From NCBI RefSeq assembly GCF_036507355.1, contig NZ_AP027877.1: a stretch of 64,000 nt of DNA. The stretch is one strand, 5' to 3'. The translations under genes and the position numbers were made by a program. Of this stretch, positions 5,439 through 29,772 are shown piece by piece; position 1 is the stretch's first letter, and each line of letters opens with the position of its first letter. The stretch comes from Escherichia coli. Lineage in GTDB: Bacteria > Pseudomonadota > Gammaproteobacteria > Enterobacterales > Enterobacteriaceae. The notes below the pieces were generated by a model. The model was given only the letters and a program-made list of their open reading frames with translations, was not told the origin of the DNA and ran no database searches.

Positions 5439-7205
5439 TTAGTAAGTACGAATCTTCGGCGGGAATGCCGGGCGCAGTTTCGGTTCCATGTTGACGCTTC
5501 GGCGCGTCATGGATTCCGACTCTGGCAGATACAGGGAGTGGCACAGCCAGTTTTCATCATCACGATCCGGGAAGTCGAAGCGGCTATGTGCGCCACGGCT
5601 TTCGGTACGGAAGTTGGCAGAAACAGCCGTTGCATACGCCGTTTCCATCAGGTTATCCAGTTCCAGGCACTCAACGCGCTGGGTGTTGAACTCGCTGGAA
5701 GTGTCATCCAGACGGGCATTTTTCAGACGCTCGCGGATAACTTTCAACTGCTCAAGCCCTTTCGCCATCGCATCACCTTCACGGAAGACCGAGAAGTTAT
5801 GCTGCATACATTCTTGCAGCGCTTTACGAATCGCCACCGGATCTTCACCGTTACGATTATTGTTCCAGCGGTTCAGACGATCCAGAGACGCTTCAACATC
5901 AGACTCGCTGGCATCGCGCAGTGCGCCCTGCTCGGCGATAGACTCTTGCAGATGCAGACCTGCCGCACGACCAAAGACCACCAGGTCCAGCAGCGAGTTG
6001 CCGCCCAGACGGTTAGCGCCGTGTACCGATACACAAGCGATTTCACCTACCGCGAACAGCCCCGGAACAACCACATCTTCGCCTTTCTCATTCACAGTCA
6101 GCGCCTGACCGGTAACTTTGGTCGGAATACCGCCCATCATGTAGTGACAGGTTGGGATAACCGGAATCGGCTCTTTCACCGGATCAACGTGAGCGAAGGT
6201 ACGGGAAAGCTCCAGGATACCCGGCAGACGGGATTCGAGAACTTCTTTACCCAGGTGATCGAGTTTCAGTTTCGCGTGTGGCCCCCACGGACCATCACAG
6301 CCGCGACCTTCACGGATTTCGATCATGATGGAACGCGCCACCACATCACGGCCCGCCAGGTCTTTGGCGTTCGGCGCATAACGCTCCATAAAGCGTTCGC
6401 CATGTTTGTTCAGCAGATAACCGCCTTCACCACGGCAACCTTCGGTGACCAGTACGCCCGCACCGGCAATGCCGGTCGGGTGGAATTGCCACATTTCCAT
6501 ATCCTGCACCGGTACACCTGCACGGATAGCCATGCCGACGCCGTCGCCAGTGTTAATGTGGGCGTTAGTGGTGGACTGATAAATACGCCCTGCTCCGCCA
6601 GTCGCCAGCACGGTAGCGCGGGCTTTGAAATAAACCACTTCACCGGTTTCGATGCACAGTGCGGTACAACCCACCACCGCGCCATCCTGGTTTTTCACCA
6701 GATCCAGCGCATACCACTCAGAGAAAATGGTGGTGTGGTTTTTCAGGTTCTGCTGATAAAGCGTGTGCAACAGTGCGTGACCGGTACGGTCAGCCGCTGC
6801 CGCAGTACGTGCCGCCTGCTCGCCGCCGAAGTTTTTCGACTGACCGCCAAACGGACGTTGATAGATACGACCATCATCAAGACGCGAGAACGGCAGGCCC
6901 ATGTGTTCGAGTTCCAGAATCGCTTCCGGCCCGGTTTTACACATATATTCAATCGCGTCCTGGTCACCGATATAGTCCGACCCTTTCACGGTGTCGTACA
7001 TATGCCATTCCCAGTTATCTTCATGGGTATTACCCAGCGCAACGGTAATGCCGCCTTGCGCAGAAACGGTATGGGAACGGGTCGGGAAGACTTTAGAGAG
7101 CAGCGCACAGGTCTGGCCGCTCTGGGAAATTTGCAGCGCCGCGCGCATACCTGCGCCGCCGGCACCAATCACAACTGCATCAAATTCTCTGACTGGCAAT
7201 TTCAT
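5439..7205 (-). CDS. sdhA: Succinate dehydrogenase flavoprotein subunit
   Basis: Track ORF 5439..7217 begins [26 protein letters not shown]...; start placed at MKLPVREF, giving 588 aa; FAD-binding GAGGAG motif. Confidence 0.96.
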
Positions 7206-22184: not shown

Positions 22185-23603
22185 TTATTTCCCCTTCCGC
22201 GCCGCCTCATACGCTGCCAACGTTTGTACTCTCGCCTCTTTGTGATCGACTATCGGTTGCGGATAATCCAGCGTCACACCTGCTTTCTGCGCCCACTTCC
22301 ACGGCTCATGCACCGCTTTCCCCGGTACATTGCGCAGTTCCGGTAGCCACTGGCGGATAAACTCGCCTTCGCGGTCAAATTTCTCGCCCTGGGTTGTCGG
22401 GTTGAAAATACGAAAATACGGCGCTGCATCAGTACCCGTAGAAGCCGCCCACTGCCAGCCACCGTTATTGGCTGCCAAATCACCATCAATCAGCTGCGAC
22501 ATGAAATATCGCTCGCCTTCGCGCCAGTCGATCAACAAATCTTTCACCAGAAAACTGGCTGTAATCATCCGTAGCCTGTTATGCATCCAGCCAGTGCTAT
22601 TAAGCTGACGCATGGCAGCATCGACAATCGGGTATCCCGTTATGCCTTCCTGCCAGGCCTTTAAATGGGCGGGATTGCTTTGCCACTGTACACGATCCGT
22701 CCAGGCAATAAACGGACAATGTTTACACAACGAGGGGTAATATGTCATCAGATGACGGTAAAACTCGCGCCAGATCAGCTCATTAAGCCAGACACTACCG
22801 GCCCCACCGTCCAGCGCCTGCGGCTGTTCCGCCAACAGGCGATGCAAACACTGGCGAGGTGATAACCCGCCCGTTGCCAGGCTGGCGGACAAACGACTGG
22901 TGCCTTCCACTGCCGGAAAATCTCGTTGTTGCTCATATTCTCCGGCACCGTTCTGGCAAAACTGGCGTAATTGCGCAATCGCCGCTTTTTCTTCCACCGG
23001 GAAATGCGCAGTATCGAAAGACTGACGAGGATAATTCAGCGTAATGGATGGCGCGGGCTTTATCGATCCGCTACTACGAACTTTTGGTGCAGCGACGCAC
23101 TCCGGCATCCCTTCCCGCAGCCGTTTCAGCCAGGCATTCTTAAAAGGCGTAAAGACTTTGTACATCTCATGATTGCCGGTCATCACCGCGCCAGGCGGCA
23201 GGATCACGCTGTCATCAAATCCTTCACACACCACGTTACGCAGCGTTCTCTCAACCTGCACATCCCGCGCCCGCTCATTCACCTCATACTGATAGTTATA
23301 AAAAAGATGAGTAACGCTGTTTTCCGCGCACACCTGTTTAACTATTTCGACGCTGGCGGCAAAGTCATCCACTTCACGGAACAATAAAGGAATGCCTTTT
23401 TCCGCCAGCGCGATTTGTAGCCCGTTCAGTTGAGCATTGATAAGTTCAGCCTGACGCGGCGACATATTATGCGCCGCCCACTGGCGTGGTGTAGCGATAT
23501 ACAACGCCAGCACGCGTGCAGACGAATTGCGGCAGGCGGCAGCCAGCGCGAGATTATCGTGCAGACGTAAATCCTGGCGAAACCAGACCAGATGAGTAGT
23601 CAT
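22185..23603 (-). CDS. phr: Deoxyribodipyrimidine photolyase
   Basis: 472-aa ORF MTTHLVWFRQDLRLHDNLALAAACRNSSARVLALYIATPRQW...; full length. Confidence 0.96.
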   Translation of the reverse strand: MTTHLVWFRQDLRLHDNLALAAACRNSSARVLALYIATPRQWAAHNMSPRQAELINAQLNGLQIALAEKGIPLLFREVDDFAASVEIVKQVCAENSVTHLFYNYQYEVNERARDVQVERTLRNVVCEGFDDSVILPPGAVMTGNHEMYKVFTPFKNAWLKRLREGMPECVAAPKVRSSGSIKPAPSITLNYPRQSFDTAHFPVEEKAAIAQLRQFCQNGAGEYEQQRDFPAVEGTSRLSASLATGGLSPRQCLHRLLAEQPQALDGGAGSVWLNELIWREFYRHLMTYYPSLCKHCPFIAWTDRVQWQSNPAHLKAWQEGITGYPIVDAAMRQLNSTGWMHNRLRMITASFLVKDLLIDWREGERYFMSQLIDGDLAANNGGWQWAASTGTDAAPYFRIFNPTTQGEKFDREGEFIRQWLPELRNVPGKAVHEPWKWAQKAGVTLDYPQPIVDHKEARVQTLAAYEAARKGK

Positions 23604-24109
23604 AAAACTCCTGAATGGCGCAAGTTAATCACACGCGGCCAAAGTTCGAAATAACGCTGCCCTGAAAGCCAGGCGTCAGGATAAAGCGCCATATAGTGTT
23701 TGATACGCATCAGCGGCGCAAGAAGTGGTTGCTCGCCACGGCGATAACTGTCGATAAGCGCAGCCAGCTGCTGGCGTTCTGTGGAATCAATATGCGGGCG
23801 AAAATAACCCTGAACGTGCATCAAAACGTTGGTGTGATCGCGCGGGTTGGCGGGATGAGAAAGCAAAACAATTACGCGTTGGCGGTACTGGCTGTAAAAA
23901 TCATCCAGATTTTGCCACTGATGAATATCAGCCACAAACGGGCCAAGTTTGCGGTATTCCGGCTGAGAATGAGCCAGAAAGACGAGTTTATAGCGGCTGT
24001 GATAATCGAGAAGCGCCCCGCGCGTTAAGCCATGTTCTTTCAGTCGATGTAACTCATGAAGGGCGAAGATACGGATTAGGGTGCTGTCATCAAATCGTTG
24101 CTGATTCAT
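23600..24109 (-). CDS. ybgA: DUF1722-family protein, co-transcribed with phr
   Basis: 169-aa ORF MNQQRFDDSTLIRIFALHELHRLKEHGLTRGALLDYHSRYKLVFLAHSQPEYRKLG...; stop overlaps the phr start (ATGA). Confidence 0.9.
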   Translation of the reverse strand: MNQQRFDDSTLIRIFALHELHRLKEHGLTRGALLDYHSRYKLVFLAHSQPEYRKLGPFVADIHQWQNLDDFYSQYRQRVIVLLSHPANPRDHTNVLMHVQGYFRPHIDSTERQQLAALIDSYRRGEQPLLAPLMRIKHYMALYPDAWLSGQRYFELWPRVINLRHSGVL

Positions 24110-24339
24110 TACTGCTCCTGAGATATTAACAGGAGTAAGTGTAGACGTTGGGAAATGATTTTTGTGAAGTTAATCCGCTAGCAGGGCAAGATTACGAAAG
24201 CGCGCTCCCCGCAAGCAACTCATCAAGGTAGTTAATCATGGCTTAACACGATATTACGCCAGAAGTCACCATTTCCAAAACACAGCGCCGCTATAAAGTC
24301 GGCTATGTCAGAGCCCGCCACATAAACAGCAAAACCTAC

Positions 24340-24567
24340 ATGACCACGTACTACTCACGACACCCCTGCCTGAACCTTAAGGGCGACTGGCTGAAAGAGG
24401 CCGGATTTGATACCGGGCGGGGTGTCACGGTGAAGATTTCGGAGGGGTGCCTGACCATTATCGCTGACAGTGACGAGGTGCAGGAGCTGCGGGAGGAACT
24501 TTATCAGGTTAAACAGGTGGTTAAGGGGATACGGAGCGGGATGTTTAGTGTGCTGGACGAGAGTTAA
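24340..24567 (+). CDS. SymE-like small protein (SymE/AbrB-fold type I toxin family); possibly N-terminally truncated
   Basis: 75-aa ORF MTTYYSRHPCLNLKGDWLKEAGFDTGRGVTVKISEGCLTIIADSDEVQELREELYQ... resembles the SymE core (..[33 protein letters not shown]..). The in-frame upstream sequence still looks SymE-like but has no start codon before the stop at 24244. Confidence 0.6.
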   Translation: MTTYYSRHPCLNLKGDWLKEAGFDTGRGVTVKISEGCLTIIADSDEVQELREELYQVKQVVKGIRSGMFSVLDES

Positions 24568-24572
24568 ATAAT

Positions 24573-24612
24573 AAAAAAGCCGGGAAGATGTTATTTTCTT
24601 CCCGGCTTTTTT
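24573..24612. terminator. Bidirectional rho-independent terminator shared by the SymE-like gene (+) and the Rhs immunity gene (-)
   Basis: gccgggaag-(10 nt loop)-cttcccggc stem flanked by an A run on one side and a T run on the other. Confidence 0.75.
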
Positions 24613-24904
24613 AAAGTTTATTTATAGCTTGGTTAATTTCAAATAATAATGAGACAATATCTTTCGCAGAACCATTATAAATGGGGGTATCCCAATCAAA
24701 GTCCTTTATTAAACAAATATAAAAATTCCCATTTAAATTAAAAGATGGTCGCCACCCAACATCCAAAAGATACCCACCAGGATATTCAACTTGGAGCATA
24801 TCTTCCTTAAGTTCATCTCGCTGTTCATTAAGAGGGATGCTTTGTTTCAGGGAGAAGTCATTAAAAATTACATTCCCTTTTTTTCCTAAGAAATCAATGT
24901 TCAT
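24611..24904 (-). CDS. Putative Rhs immunity protein (cognate to the toxin tip immediately upstream)
   Basis: 97-aa AT-rich ORF MNIDFLGKKGNVIFNDFSLKQSIPLNEQRDELKEDMLQVEYPGGYLLDVGW...; its ATG overlaps the toxin stop (ATGA at 24901-24904). Position and composition are typical of rhsI genes; no family assignment was possible. Confidence 0.6.
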   Translation of the reverse strand: MNIDFLGKKGNVIFNDFSLKQSIPLNEQRDELKEDMLQVEYPGGYLLDVGWRPSFNLNGNFYICLIKDFDWDTPIYNGSAKDIVSLLFEINQAINKL

Positions 24905-26151
24905 GGTGTTGTTAGCCTTCGGAATTCATCAAGTGATATGGGATGTCCATGTATTGTCCCACCGCTAAGTTCAACTCGAACCCATTGAGATTCTTTACCC
25001 TCACTGGCCCCAATAACTTTCCCCATATCTTTTACTTTCCATGGTTTACCGTTGGTAACAGGTGTGCCTGTATTAAAAACATCGTATTCCAGCGTTTTAA
25101 TATCAATATCGGGAGAATATTTTGCCGGGCCTGATTTTGTTGATTTAATTATATCCTTCCATGATTTGTTTTTTGGAGGAAAATGTTTGTATCCATGATT
25201 TGTCCATTCAGGTTGCCCACACTTTAAACCTAACGGGTCGATCCACCCCAACGGATTCGGCGCGTATTGGTATAAATTTAATCCACCAAGCAGCCCTATC
25301 GGATCCGTTACCATGAACCGCCCGACATCCGGATCATAGTACCTGTGCAGATTGTAGTGCAGCCCCGTTTCCCTGTCGAGGTACTGTCCCTGGTAGCGCA
25401 GGTTCTGCTCCACCCTGCCGTGGTCCTTCTCCTGTATCGTGTTACCCCAGACCTGATACCCCGTCTCCCACACGATTCTCCCGTCGCTGTCCGTCATCTC
25501 TTCCGGCGCACCGTTCACATCCGTGTGAAAATACAGTATCCGGTTCGGGCCCTCTTTGCCTGCCTTATCCACCCGCGCCAGCGGTTCATAACTCCCCGGG
25601 TCCCTGTAGATGTACAGGCTGCCTGTTCCCTCCGGCCTGCTCTCCTGCGCCAGCCGCATTCCGTCCCATAAAAATTTTGTCCGGTTGTACGGTTTACCGT
25701 CAGGGCTGATGTGCTGTTTTTCCGTCCGCCTCCCCAGTGCATCGTACACATACCGGTATGCCCCCCGCGCTGTCGTCACTTCCACCATCCGGTGTTCCGC
25801 ATCATAACGGTAACTCTGCGTTCCGCTCCGGCCCTCCTTTTCCACCGCACGGCCAAATTCGTCATAACGGTAGTGCACACCACGGTAAGACATCAGCCGG
25901 TTGAACGGCACCACGCTGTTTTCTGCCGTGGCCCTTTCCCCCGCGCGCCTCCCCAGCAGGTTTCCCGCCGCGTCGTACTGCCAGCTCGCCAGATACCCCT
26001 CATCCTCCGAACGGCACGCCGTGATGCGCCCCGTGGGGTCGTAGAAGTAATCCGTTTCCCCCCGCCGGCTGTGCCGCGTCTTCAGCAGTTCATCCTCGCC
26101 ACTGTAGCTGTACTGCCGGTCCGTGAACGTCTCCGGTACCACCCCGCGCAT
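24901..26151 (-). CDS. Rhs protein, C-terminal part: end of YD-repeat core, PxxxxDPxGL motif and a 107-aa toxin tip. Same frame as the upstream fragment, separated from it by an in-frame TAG
   Basis: ORF contains YD repeats (YRYDEFGR, YRYDAEHR, YVYDALGRR) and the hallmark YYDPDVGRFMVTDPIGLLGGLNLYQYAPNPLGWIDPLGL, followed by a low-GC tip KCGQPEWTNHGYKHF...TIHGHPISLDEFRRLTTP. Frame arithmetic: the TAG at 26221-26223 is in frame with this ORF. Confidence 0.85.
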   Translation of the reverse strand: MRGVVPETFTDRQYSYSGEDELLKTRHSRRGETDYFYDPTGRITACRSEDEGYLASWQYDAAGNLLGRRAGERATAENSVVPFNRLMSYRGVHYRYDEFGRAVEKEGRSGTQSYRYDAEHRMVEVTTARGAYRYVYDALGRRTEKQHISPDGKPYNRTKFLWDGMRLAQESRPEGTGSLYIYRDPGSYEPLARVDKAGKEGPNRILYFHTDVNGAPEEMTDSDGRIVWETGYQVWGNTIQEKDHGRVEQNLRYQGQYLDRETGLHYNLHRYYDPDVGRFMVTDPIGLLGGLNLYQYAPNPLGWIDPLGLKCGQPEWTNHGYKHFPPKNKSWKDIIKSTKSGPAKYSPDIDIKTLEYDVFNTGTPVTNGKPWKVKDMGKVIGASEGKESQWVRVELSGGTIHGHPISLDEFRRLTTP

Positions 26152-26220
26152 CCCGCTGTATGTCTCCCTGCGCTTCAGCCGCCCGCCGGGGTCGTAAAGC
26201 TGCCGCGTGCTCAGTCGCCC

Positions 26221-28380
26221 CTAGCTTCTGAGCACCTCACGGTGCAGGTGGTCGCGCGTGAACTCGCTGATGACCTCCCGGTCCAGATTTATCTGCTGGA
26301 GATGGCCGCTGCCGTAGTACAGATGGCGCTGCGTTCTGCCGTCCGGAAAGGTGGTGGCAGTCCGGTTGCCCAGTTCATCGTACTGGTGGGTCAGGATGCC
26401 CTGCGCCGTCTCCTCGCTCAGCATCCGCCCCAGTCTGTCGTAGCTGAAGCAGATAACTTCCGGCGCGTCAGTTTCGTGCCGCTGGCGGCGGATTTCACCG
26501 CCCCGGTCCCCGGTGAACACCACTTCCGTGACCGCGTTCAGCGCGTTGTAGCGGTACGACTGGCGGCAGCCGTCCGGATTTATCTGCTCCGCCAGACGGT
26601 CCAGCACGTCATGGCGGAACCGGTAGCGTTCTCCGTTCTCGTTCGTGAGCGTGACCAGACGCCCGTAAGCGTCGTACCCGAACGCCGTCCTGCGCCCCAT
26701 CGCGTCCGTCCGGCTGCGCACCCGGCCCTGCCCGTCCCGCTGCCAGCGCGTTATCCTCCCCATCGGGCTGGTGTACTTCACCAGACTGCCCGCCGCGTCT
26801 GACTGGTAATTCACCGTGCGGCCGTCCGCCAGTATCACCTCCGTCAGATGACCGCTGTCGTCATACCCGTAGCGCGTGCTGTGGCTCTCCGCATCCGTCA
26901 TTCTGATAAGCCGCGTGCGTTCGTCGTAGAACCACGCCGTCTGCGAGCCGGAGCAGTCCGTGTGCCGCATGAGCTGCCCGTCTTCATTCCACTGGAGGTG
27001 TTTATTCCCCCCGCGCGCATCCGTTATCTGCACCACCTGGCCGTGGTGGTCATACTGATACCGGGTGTTCTGCTGCAGCGGGTCGGTCACGGCAAGAAGG
27101 TTGCCGCGTTCATCGTACACACAGCGCCAGGTGTTTCCCGCCGCGTCCACCTCCGTTTCCGGCTGGTGCCACACCGGGTGCCACTGTGTCTGCGCCACCC
27201 GCCCCAGCGGGTCGTGCGTCTCCGTGATATGCCCCTGCCGGTCATACACATAGCGCCATTTGCCGCCCTGAGGGTCGGTCATCCCCAGCAACAGTCGTTC
27301 TTCGTCGCTCCAGCGGAATGTCGTCACCTGTCCGGCTTCGTCCTGGTACGCCGTCACCTGATTCTGCGCATCCCACTGGTGATAACGTGTGCGCCCCAGT
27401 CCGTCCGTCACGCACAGCCTGCGCTGCGCCAGGTCCCACGCCAGCCGGTACTGTTCACCGCTGTCCGTGTGGTGCCCCGTCACCCGCCATGCCGCGTCAT
27501 CCGGACCGTCATACCAGCCCCACTGGTAATAATACCCTTCGCCGCCCGGCTGGCGGTGCAGCGTCATGCAGTGGTTTTCGTCGTAAGCAAACTCACGCAG
27601 CAGGTGCCCCGTGCTGTCGTACACGCCGTTCAGGTGGCCGGCCTCGTCATAGCTGTAACGACGCAGCAGTAAAGGTGCAGTCTCAGGGAAATGCTGATAA
27701 ATCTGTGTCACCCGCCGGGGATGCGCCGCCAGTTCGTAATACAGACGGATGCACGGACGCTGCTGTTCGCCGCTGATTTCCACAATGCGGCCCCGGTCGT
27801 CGTAGTACAGATTCAGACAGTTGCTGTTACGGTCGCCCAGCATTTTCAGCCGCTGGCGCTGCGGGTGGTGCGGGTCGCCTTCAAACAACCAGTGGATACC
27901 ATCATCGCTGCTGATAAGCCAGTGCCCCTGCTCACCACGCCTTACCGCCAGCCCTTCACCGGGGCTGTAAAACCCGCCCCCCGGCAGTACGGCTTCCATA
28001 TCCAGGCGTCGCCCCATACCCGACACAAAGGTCATGCAGTTTTCGTCTGCGCCACCCGGCAATACAAATGCCACCTGACACTGGTACACCTGCTCGTTAT
28101 CACGGAGAAACTGGCTCTGTATTTCCAGCCCTTGTTCACCGTCATTAATCCCTACCCGTGTTACCTGAACTGGCGTGTAGTGAAGATCCTTTACCTGTTT
28201 CTCCAGTTTTTTCATTTGCTGTTCAATCTGGGAGGCTAATTCGTCTCCTTCCTGCATCTGGCCCCGACTGATAATGAGTGCAGCGTCGGGATCGCTGAGG
28301 CGCAGCATATTAATAGTGCTGTCCTGAATAATATTCCCGGGAAAAGTTACAACAGTTTCATTGAGATAATACTCCGTCAT
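26221..28380 (-). CDS. Rhs protein, N-terminal part: DUF1795-like N-terminal domain plus YD-repeat core, ended by an in-frame amber codon (probable pseudogene or disrupted gene)
   Basis: 719-aa ORF. Core shows classic Rhs repeats (YQYDHHGQVV, YGYDDSGHLTEV, FGYDAYGRLV) and ends ...FTRDHLHREVLRS*, where intact Rhs proteins continue ...TRDRLHRETLRSFG.... Confidence 0.85.
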   Translation of the reverse strand: MTEYYLNETVVTFPGNIIQDSTINMLRLSDPDAALIISRGQMQEGDELASQIEQQMKKLEKQVKDLHYTPVQVTRVGINDGEQGLEIQSQFLRDNEQVYQCQVAFVLPGGADENCMTFVSGMGRRLDMEAVLPGGGFYSPGEGLAVRRGEQGHWLISSDDGIHWLFEGDPHHPQRQRLKMLGDRNSNCLNLYYDDRGRIVEISGEQQRPCIRLYYELAAHPRRVTQIYQHFPETAPLLLRRYSYDEAGHLNGVYDSTGHLLREFAYDENHCMTLHRQPGGEGYYYQWGWYDGPDDAAWRVTGHHTDSGEQYRLAWDLAQRRLCVTDGLGRTRYHQWDAQNQVTAYQDEAGQVTTFRWSDEERLLLGMTDPQGGKWRYVYDRQGHITETHDPLGRVAQTQWHPVWHQPETEVDAAGNTWRCVYDERGNLLAVTDPLQQNTRYQYDHHGQVVQITDARGGNKHLQWNEDGQLMRHTDCSGSQTAWFYDERTRLIRMTDAESHSTRYGYDDSGHLTEVILADGRTVNYQSDAAGSLVKYTSPMGRITRWQRDGQGRVRSRTDAMGRRTAFGYDAYGRLVTLTNENGERYRFRHDVLDRLAEQINPDGCRQSYRYNALNAVTEVVFTGDRGGEIRRQRHETDAPEVICFSYDRLGRMLSEETAQGILTHQYDELGNRTATTFPDGRTQRHLYYGSGHLQQINLDREVISEFTRDHLHREVLRS

Positions 28381-29163
28381 AATGATATGAGTCCTTTTTA
28401 ATTAATAAATTATTTAATGATGGTTTTTGTTTATTTTTAGTCATGAAAATGATACCCATCACTGCTTTACAGCACACTTTATCTTTCCAGCCATAATCAC
28501 TAATAATATTAAGCAATTACCAATATTTACACCGACCAGAGCGGATACATAGTTATGTATTTAACAATCCCAATATATTCACTATGCAAATAAAACCACT
28601 AGTAACAGACACGCTACCGCCTCCATATAAAAATGGACACCTTATAAAATTGTATCTTGCATAGAAAAAGCTGAAATATCGGATGCGTTTTAATTATCCA
28701 CTATAAGTCTATAAGCTTTTTATTAACAACAAAACATCTTATTGGATTAGATATGTTAACAATTAATTATTCTTAATATATCAATAAAGTATATATTACT
28801 CTCTTTACTATCTGCTTTTCTTGCGGTAGCGATACTAATAGCAAAATTCGGAATTTATTTAGATGCTGGAATTAGAAAAAGGGATGGCGGCCTTCTCACC
28901 TTACCCTGAAGTCTCAGGAAAGTGTGTAAGGAAGTATGCAACCTAACTGGAGATTTCTGATGATCTAGCCGCTTAGAGCGACAATGAAGGTGACCGCATC
29001 CTGGGTAGCCCTATGAAAGGATACTATTGAAACTTGATGCTAAAACAGTGATGAAATGAATAACACGATGGAAACGTCTTCCATGTTAATTATCATGGAA
29101 GACGTTGATGTAAAATACCTAAACCAGCCCCCTGATACGAGGCTGGCTTAAGCGCGCAGGCAA

Positions 29164-29370
29164 TCAATAAAAATCACCGGTTGCCTTTTCGGCCTGATCC
29201 ATCCAAACCGGTTTATCGCTGGTTTTCGACCAGACGCGATGCAGGTAGCTGTAAAAGCGGGCGCGGTCTTTCCAGAAAAGCATGAAAGGCAGCGCCAGAA
29301 CGCCCGCTGCAACCGCATAAGTACGGCGTAAAAAGATAAGCCATGCAGGATATTCTCTGTAGAGTTCCAT
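29164..29370 (-). CDS. ybfA: DUF2517-family small protein
   Basis: 68-aa [71 protein letters not shown]. Confidence 0.85.
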
Positions 29371-29579
29371 ACTTTTCTCCCCCTTTTGTATCTACCCGGT
29401 GAATAGCACCGGAAAAATGAATTTGTTTATCTGATGAAAATAGTACCGCTTTTTGTGTAATTTTACTACTCATCCGACCACTTATTTTTGCTTATTGATG
29501 GTTTATTTACATTCACCCTGTAATTAAGTTACACAAAAGTTAAATTAATACTAAACATTAGTTAAATCATGGCTTTTGC

Positions 29580-29682
29580 CATTTTTATACTTTTTTTACA
29601 CCCCGCCCGCAGATTTTTGCGAAATCTTTGCAGCCAGAATTCTACCCTTCCGGTATCACTTTTAGGCCACTGGAGGTGCACT
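29580..29682 (+). promoter_or_regulatory. kdpFABC promoter region with T-rich KdpE-binding sequence
   Basis: atttttatactttttttacaccccgcccg at 29581-29609 matches the KdpE operator as I recall it, lying just upstream of kdpF; exact -35/-10 not assigned. Confidence 0.5.
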
Positions 29683-29772
29683 GTGAGTGCAGGCGTGATA
29701 ACCGGCGTATTGCTGGTGTTTTTATTACTGGGTTATCTGGTTTATGCCCTGATCAATGCGGAGGCGTTCTGA
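29683..29772 (+). CDS. kdpF: K+-transporting ATPase small subunit F
   Basis: In-frame within track ORF 29569..29772: (GTG)[28 protein letters not shown], a 29-aa hydrophobic peptide; stop overlaps the kdpA ATG. Start codon inferred as GTG at 29683. Confidence 0.8.

Follow-up and report, generated by a model that had tools for sequence, protein, structure and literature searches.

A probable decayed Rhs effector cassette of type VI secretion between ybfA and ybgA in Escherichia coli

Rhs genes of Escherichia coli and Shigella have been assigned to 11 chromosomal positions, the fifth of which lies between kdpA and phr (Jackson et al. 2009, PMC2935791). Most strains carry a clade I Rhs at this position and Shigella flexneri a Salmonella-like clade III Rhs; pseudogenes, relics and the exchange of tips by C-terminal displacement have all been reported for Rhs loci (PMC2935791). 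Here we describe the occupant of the interval between ybgA and ybfA in a 64,000-nucleotide stretch of E. coli DNA (assembly GCF_036507355.1, contig NZ_AP027877.1), hereafter the window, whose coordinates are used throughout. The locus has the same flanking genes as position 5, where non-clade-I occupants are likewise recorded in some strains (PMC2935791). An earlier note on the window had read the interval as holding one shorter Rhs gene and had compared it with the rhsC element of K-12. We consider it very probable that the interval is instead the decayed remnant of an effector cassette for a type VI secretion system (T6SS), from a lineage unrelated to K-12 rhsC.

The closest described systems are the class I prePAAR Rhs effectors that work with an Eag chaperone: Pseudomonas protegens RhsA with EagR1 (PDB 7Q97), Salmonella Rhs1 with SciW (6XRB) and Serratia Rhs1-2 with EagR. 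The Eag-dependent mechanism of prePAAR Rhs proteins is established for these homologues (PMC8765631), and a further source also deals with the mechanism of homologous systems (PMC4524185). By analogy with RhsA/EagR1 and Rhs1/SciW, a cassette of this kind would work in four steps: the chaperone would shield the transmembrane (TM) helices of the effector, the PAAR domain would mount the Rhs cage on the VgrG spike, the T6SS would fire the loaded cage into a neighbouring cell, and the self-cleaved BECR-fold RNase tip would kill that cell unless the immunity protein RhsI were present. A second point of comparison is the PAAR-Rhs protein A464_2174 of Salmonella bongori N268-08 (PDB 8QJB, 8QJC, 8QJD). 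In Salmonella, finally, Rhs orphans that lack delivery domains are reported to act intracellularly (PMC7043789).

The intact version of the cassette, found at this site in E. coli CUWW06, C10 and other strains, comprises an AT-rich leader, a DUF1795/Eag chaperone gene, an Rhs gene for about 1545 residues, its cognate immunity gene and a SymE-like gene with an IsrA-like antisense RNA. CUWW06, which carries it at the same site, served as our reference allele; its genes encode a 150-residue "DcrB-related protein", a 1544-residue Rhs protein, the same 97-residue product as in the window and a 109-residue SymE-family protein. The intact Rhs protein carries a prePAAR motif, TM helices, PAAR, a DUF6531 plug, a YD-repeat cage, a PxxxxDPxGL autoprotease and a toxin of about 108 residues. 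The CUWW06 protein begins with MEEAFWAARQGDALLH, its N-terminus contains the prePAAR-type motif AARQGDALLH, and hydrophobic helices, a split PAAR (PF05488) and DUF6531 follow. Over its first 472 residues it can be aligned with P. protegens RhsA (7Q97), the TM/PAAR region and the plug included (E 6e-54), and the full-length chaperone matches SciW (6XRB, 6XRR; E 7e-4). The intact allele resembles class I prePAAR effectors in its chaperone-Rhs-immunity gene order, AARxxDxxxH-type motif, TM helices, split PAAR and plug.

The corresponding features of the window are as follows.

28054-28380, minus strand: 5' fragment of the DUF1795/DcrB Eag chaperone gene, codons 1-109 of 150 (Pfam DcrB, PF08786)
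28054-28059, minus strand: deletion junction with CCGGGT microhomology, aligned to both parental sites in CUWW06
26224-28053, minus strand: Rhs-derived part of a 719-codon fusion open reading frame (ORF), YD-repeat shell, residues ~457-1102 of the intact 1544-residue protein
26221-26223, minus strand: in-frame TAG, CAG (Gln) in the intact allele ("...REVLRS*GRLS" against "...REVLRSQGRLS", the asterisk marking the stop)
24901-26151, minus strand: 416-codon ORF 3' of the nonsense codon, covering the final third of the Rhs shell plus the RHS core (aspartyl-protease) domain and toxin
24904-25227, minus strand: C-terminal toxin tip, 108 residues after PLGWIDPLGL, predicted BECR-fold RNase
24611-24904, minus strand: rhsI immunity gene, intact, 97 residues, overlapping the Rhs stop codon by 4 bp
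24238-24567, plus strand: SymE-family (type I toxin-like) gene, compared with the 109-residue CUWW06 protein

The Rhs frame runs from 28380 down to 24904. It is 1159 codons long with a single in-frame TAG, in line with the approximately 1160 codons on read-through given in the earlier note, and this TAG divides it into ORFs of 719 and 416 codons. The start of the frame is chaperone: Pfam DcrB (PF08786) matches residues 18-108 (E 2.7e-13) and is followed by RHS repeats and the RHS core with no PAAR, and residues 1-109 differ from the 150-residue CUWW06 chaperone by a single substitution (D94 in the window, G94 in CUWW06). The reading frame continues across the junction from chaperone codon 109 into the Rhs residues after "...VRTPG" (from about 457), with codon 110 (28051-28053) agreeing with neither parent. 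Relative to the CUWW06 locus, 1.5 kb has been deleted (coordinates 5675-7175 of that locus), and with it the last 40 residues of the chaperone and Rhs residues 1 to about 456, which comprise the prePAAR motif, TM helices, PAAR, seal and anchor and most of the plug, these parts being defined as in RhsA (PMC8765631). The N-terminal prePAAR motif, TM helices and PAAR that serve for mounting on VgrG are absent from the window ORF (Pfam; residues 1-109 are DcrB), and upstream of it there is no separate complete DUF1795/Eag chaperone gene, the fused codons 1-109 of 150 being all that is present.

Window residues 102-1159 align with residues 448-1544 of CUWW06 Rhs at 94% identity (blastp), and among solved cores that of P. 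protegens RhsA comes closest (7Q97; E 6e-254). RHS_repeat (PF05593) matches with E<=0.001 number ten in the 719-codon part and 11 in the whole read-through; the RHS core domain PF03527 scores E 5.6e-14, TIGR03696 reaches 29.9 bits, just under its cut-off of 32.5, and the autocleavage motif PLGWIDPLGL, of PxxxxDPxGL type, is present. The frame is nevertheless interrupted, unlike that of intact effectors, and the 416-codon ORF is already recorded as a separate E. coli protein (BED23265.1). The 719-residue DcrB/RHS ORF and the 416-residue ORF are best annotated as one pseudogene, which is not a shorter allele, and the "one shorter Rhs gene" of the earlier note dissolves into a truncated chaperone fused by a 1.5-kb deletion to an N-terminally truncated Rhs, with a nonsense codon in addition.

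The SymE-like gene is damaged as well. Its codon 3 is TAA (24244-24246), GAA in the intact alleles, which leaves a 75-residue ORF from Met35 (24340-24567). The sequence thus shows three lesions, the 1.5-kb microhomology deletion, the change of CAG to TAG in the cage and the nonsense codon 3 of the SymE-like gene, and the window cassette would no longer be able to deliver anything. Unlike class I prePAAR effectors it has lost its delivery half, its chaperone is a truncated and fused piece and a stop codon cuts its cage, and it also differs in its setting: no vgrG adjoins the cassette, and the island stands isolated between housekeeping genes.

The breakpoint on the Rhs side calls for two remarks. 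A breakpoint at the N-terminal autocleavage site of RhsA was considered and rejected, as the alignment, with a chain numbering offset that is estimated, places it later, inside the plug. Separately, E. coli TB06052 carries a chaperone-Rhs deletion of its own, out of frame and with its chaperone breakpoint at about codon 72, whose breakpoint on the Rhs side is no more than about 4 bp away from that of the window, around CCGGGTAAC (TB06052 locus 5620-5700, window 28020-28090). The near coincidence of the two breakpoints may be just that, or may mean that the end of the plug-coding region is prone to deletion.

No damage is seen in the window's tip, cleavage motif or immunity gene. The tip shares 88% identity with the S. 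bongori A464_2174 toxin (PDB 8QJC residues 1421-1529), which required co-expression of the antitoxin A464_2173 and for which an RNase fold was predicted (preprint 10.1101/2024.02.26.582050). All of the putative catalytic residues named in that preprint, H1437, K1458, H1515 and H1517, are conserved in the window tip (10.1101/2024.02.26.582050). In an alignment of 28 homologues, W8, H15, T30, Y37, E86, G94, H95 and P96 are invariant, and K14, K36 and H93 are conserved in at least 90% of the sequences; an AlphaFold2 model of the tip has a pLDDT (predicted local distance difference test) of 95. The fold inference, made anew here and independently of the preprint, again predicts an RNase-toxin fold. 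An invariant HGH motif lies near the C-terminus of the tip family. The tip has no Pfam or NCBIfam family. Its homologues occur in Rhs proteins, HINT-type polymorphic toxins and signal-peptide proteins from Proteobacteria and Firmicutes, with fusions to HINT-type toxins in Paenibacillus and signal-peptide proteins in Clostridia, Pseudomonas, Avibacterium and Morganella.

The 97-residue RhsI is identical in amino acid sequence to the product of the gene beside Rhs in CUWW06 and TB06052 (WP_032280515.1), and its termini, MNIDF... and ...AINKL, fit the primers used for the S. bongori antitoxin A464_2173; no Pfam, NCBIfam or PDB sequence matches it. Immunity against kin that still fire this toxin is the one function likely to persist at the locus.

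The resemblance to S. bongori also bears on the origin of the core. The last ~330 residues are homologous to A464_2174 (E 7e-132). The N-terminal two thirds of the window core, on the other hand, are nearer to RhsA-type proteins, and the S. bongori gene lies at another genomic site. Because the N-terminal core is RhsA-like while the last ~330 residues and the tip are S. bongori-like, the comparison suggests a mosaic core, consistent with C-terminal displacement.

Several points weigh against reading the interval as a dead remnant. The fusion in the window is in frame and long (719 codons) and might yield a translated product of some consequence; autoprotease and toxin are still encoded by the 416-codon ORF, which recalls the Salmonella orphans (PMC7043789). 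The 64-kb window contains neither a T6SS nor a cognate VgrG. The decay, moreover, is read from sequence, and both the BECR-fold RNase structure and the RNase activity of the tip family are predictions, here as in the preprint, which reports a co-expression that implies toxicity and a predicted fold.

Of the other explanations, the one that fares best, which we regard as possible if rather improbable, is that the surviving half is a residual intracellular toxin-immunity module, in which the 416-codon ORF, or a product from an internal start near the tip, is expressed together with rhsI in the manner of a type II toxin-antitoxin (TA) system or of an Rhs orphan, rhsI at the same time protecting against neighbours. 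It accounts for an intact tip, cleavage motif and rhsI in an island where three other genes or gene parts are lesioned, and for an immunity protein that does not differ from the one at intact loci; the Salmonella orphans (PMC7043789) offer a precedent, and a 10/12 sigma-70-like site lies in the core upstream of the tip (25379-25351, minus strand). Promoter-like sites are, however, as frequent here as in shuffled sequences (6 against 5.5). The ~620 bp that remain intact may simply reflect a short time since decay, the closest relatives being 100% identical.

Somewhat less probable again, in our estimate, is the broader idea that selection has kept the surviving half, that is the autoprotease, the RNase tip, the immunity gene and possibly the chaperone-cage fusion, either as an immunity orphan against kin or as a TA-like module, or that disarming deletions recur at the locus. 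If this were true, the breakpoints of the window and of TB06052 might mark a recurrent, favoured route by which the weapon is disarmed while the shield is kept.

The reading implicit in the earlier note, a functional and merely shorter effector of about 1160 residues that is secreted, perhaps with read-through of the stop codon, is strongly disfavoured by the anatomy alone and we give it very little credence. In its favour, a single TAG is all that interrupts the frame, and neither the cage repeats nor the autoprotease motif nor the toxin is damaged; yet the N-terminal 109 residues are chaperone and not Rhs, the loss of the prePAAR motif, TM helices, PAAR and most of the plug leaves no domain that could seat the protein on VgrG or seal its cage (PMC8765631), the chaperone is truncated too, and RefSeq calls the near-equivalent TB06052 locus pseudogenes.

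There remains the question of whether the lesions are real. Using the PhrB protein as a handle, we located four draft assemblies or read sets (GCA_905398585.1, GCA_016660925.1, GCA_021425525.1 and SRR32181686) that match the window at 100% along 12.3 kb apart from one gap of 105 bp in the window.

26489-26496, no strand: site of the 105-bp (35-codon) in-frame deletion, with an 8-bp direct repeat at the junction (blastn against the near-identical drafts)

The 1.5-kb deletion, the TAG and the TAA are real and not read errors, because they are identical in these independent assemblies. The drafts have ORFs of 754, 416, 97 and 75 residues, and the window has 719 instead of 754 through its own 105-bp deletion, which also makes the protein unique and explains why no exact match to the 719-residue fusion ORF was found. 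This gap, confined to the window and lying inside the YD repeats, may be a strain-specific deletion or an assembly collapse. That the lesions as a whole are sequencing or assembly artefacts of a repeat-rich, GC-rich gene is thus scarcely believable: the window-only gap at 26489-26496, flanked by its 8-bp repeat in the YD repeats, could be such a collapse, but the three lesions recur unchanged in four or more assemblies or read sets of independent origin. Among RefSeq complete genomes the exact window allele was not found, the best match being 97%.

The gene order in the window is ybgI, dtpD, phr, ybgA (23600-24109, minus strand), the island, ybfA (29164-29370, minus strand) and kdpFAB, which is the surroundings of rhsC in K-12. 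The earlier note had estimated the interval between ybgA and ybfA at about 5 kb, and it measures 5,054 bp, against 9.66 kb in K-12 MG1655, where rhsC (1397 residues), ybfB, the pseudogene ybfO, ybfC and the H-repeat genes ybfQ, ybfL and ybfD lie between ybfA and ybgA. When window positions 23501-29700 are compared with the K-12 locus by megablast, the flanks alone align, up to 24233 and from 29160, with about 106 bp next to ybgA matching inside the interval; a blastn with word size 7 adds a 36-bp repeat and a 55-bp hyperconserved Rhs core end from the K-12 interval, and nothing else. No colinear, near-identical K-12 alignment spans the interval, and the note was right that its content differs from that of the K-12 rhsC element.

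The two elements occupy the same ybfA-ybgA site and have the 55-bp hyperconserved DPxGL-coding stretch in common, but the K-12 N-terminus, tip and immunity gene are unlike those of the window. The window island for its part has a chaperone gene and a SymE-like gene, which the rhsC element lacks, and is without H-repeat genes and orphan tip: the downstream orphan core-tip fragment of the K-12 rhsC-element type is absent from the window interval. The single immunity ORF and the SymE-like gene listed in the earlier note are both there, the former as the 97-residue ORF directly downstream of Rhs and the latter beyond it. At the protein level the window core is about 30% identical to RhsC over 794 residues (blastp) and is not an RhsA-D-like core; it belongs to another Rhs lineage and is no shuffled rhsC.

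The ybgA side of the interval does link the two.

24182-24215, no strand given: 34-bp relic of an end of ISEc1 (H-repeat, ISAs1 family), between ybgA and the SymE-like gene, 94-97% identical to known copies

This sequence also stands at the ends of ybfL and ybfD in K-12 and of the ISEc1 copies in E. coli L725 and APEC E12049. K-12 and the window have an identical ybgA-side junction and the adjacent ~68 bp in common, this relic included, which hints that the ybgA-side ("right") end of the K-12 rhsC element and that of the window island may have a common ancestry. The statement in the earlier note that the interval has no H-repeat or insertion sequence-like gene needs a rider for this reason: no H-repeat or ISAs1 gene is found in the whole 64-kb window by tblastn with YbfD, but a trace of one persists in the relic. 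On the ybfA side the two differ, K-12 retaining the ybfA terminator and the window not.

The extent of the island was set by blastn against empty-site loci.

24148-29159, no strand: whole island, 5,012 bp; homology to empty-site loci stops at 24147 and restarts at 29160
28381-29159, no strand: AT-rich non-coding leader, 780 bp, 34.5% GC, upstream of the chaperone gene
29117-29153, minus strand: terminator-like hairpin directly after ybfA (consensus scan and sequence comparison)
24572-24613, no strand: bidirectional terminator-like hairpin (stem of 17 bp) where the SymE-like gene and the immunity gene converge (consensus scan, weak evidence)

The reference loci were L004, L005 and L009, some of which encode an identical PhrB protein. 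At an empty site, of which E. coli 042 is an example, ybfA is followed by 59 bp, the ybfA terminator hairpin among them, and then by ybgA. In the window the island stands in place of these 59 bp, and since no target-site duplication accompanies it, it seems to have replaced them and not simply to have been inserted. K-12 and the empty-site strains have the terminator hairpin of ybfA (AAAAAACCGCCAGCG...CGCTGGCGGTTTT) in common; the window has an unrelated island hairpin instead, and the boundary of the island therefore falls within about 4 bp of the ybfA stop codon. The island extends 780 bp past 28380, the end of the stretch considered in the earlier note. Its GC content, 60-66% in the core, 36-40% in the tip and immunity gene and 34% in the leader, has the classic Rhs pattern.

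The leader has no ORF conserved among five alleles and no Rfam match, and presumably contains a promoter or regulatory region. A perfect hairpin with a 12-bp stem (acgtcttccatg...catggaagacgt) lies in it near 29070-29105. Terminator and promoter calls throughout come from consensus scans, with counts that equal the expectation from shuffled sequence and are uninformative here.

The site between ybfA and ybgA, already known as a polymorphic Rhs locus, is rhsC-type, empty or of island type. Among 5,426 complete genomes of E. coli, a contiguous junction of the ybfA-rhsC type is present in 3,674 genomes (~68%), the empty arrangement of ybfA, 59 bp and ybgA in 1,310 (24%), and the leader, which marks the island type, in 199 (3.7%), 145 of these having it over at least 80% of its length; the leader is annotated in none of the 199. 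About 54 complete genomes carry at least 80% of the window interval. An exact 26-mer from the conserved Rhs core has no match in the species-representative genome collection, and E. coli and E. marmotae are the sole names among the listed members of the chaperone cluster.

Island-type cores are 88-94% identical in amino acid sequence up to DPxGL, and the sequences beyond are unrelated. At least four unrelated tips with their immunity genes are found on the same chaperone-Rhs core at this site: the RNase-like tip with its 97-residue immunity protein in CUWW06 and the window, a second tip with a 93-residue immunity protein in C10 and L725, and a third with a 108-residue immunity protein in APEC E12049, which also holds an orphan fourth tip with a 122-residue immunity protein and ISAs1 copies. 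The proposal in the earlier note that the locus is a hotspot for the exchange of Rhs cores and tips between strains survives in part: the site varies between strains and tips are swapped, whereas core exchange as a mechanism is unsupported. What the genomes show is a single site occupied by one or the other of two unrelated Rhs lineages with a common ybgA-side end.

The far end of the island holds the SymE-like gene and, opposite its 5' part, a small RNA known from a sequence match.

24309-24437, minus strand: isrA-like small RNA, Rfam RF01385, 112.9 bits against a gathering threshold of 51, full length (1-129)

The SymE-like ORF matches NCBIfam NF010128 (endoribonuclease SymE) with E 1.4e-13 and 50.7 bits, under the curated cut-off of 132; PF08845 is recorded on its 75-residue product, which is the E. 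coli protein BED23263.1. Salmonella IsrA lies cis-antisense to STM0294.1n, to which the 2008 paper gave "no clear functional annotation", and the two are inversely expressed (PMC2330248). The arrangement in the window resembles both SymE/SymR and IsrA/STM0294.1n, a SymE-like ORF with a cis-antisense RNA match over its 5' end, and differs from SymE/SymR in that the ORF falls below the SymE equivalog cut-off and is broken at codon 3. The SymE-like gene and its IsrA-like RNA seem to accompany these Rhs islands as a pair at their end, which suggests that IsrA/STM0294.1n is a SymE-like type I TA pair tied to Rhs islands; literature searches pairing isrA with symE returned nothing relevant.

Nothing at this locus departs from known Rhs biology, and the window is an ordinary example of a documented variable locus, whose significance is mainly for annotation: the 75-residue SymE-like ORF, for instance, is a truncated gene. 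The tip family is widespread and without a Pfam model, and a structural and bioinformatic description of it already exists. As an illustration, however, the interval is a clean example of the decay of an Rhs weapon through a microhomology deletion and nonsense mutations with its immunity gene retained, at a single chromosomal site that, depending on the E. coli strain, holds unrelated Rhs lineages or is empty.

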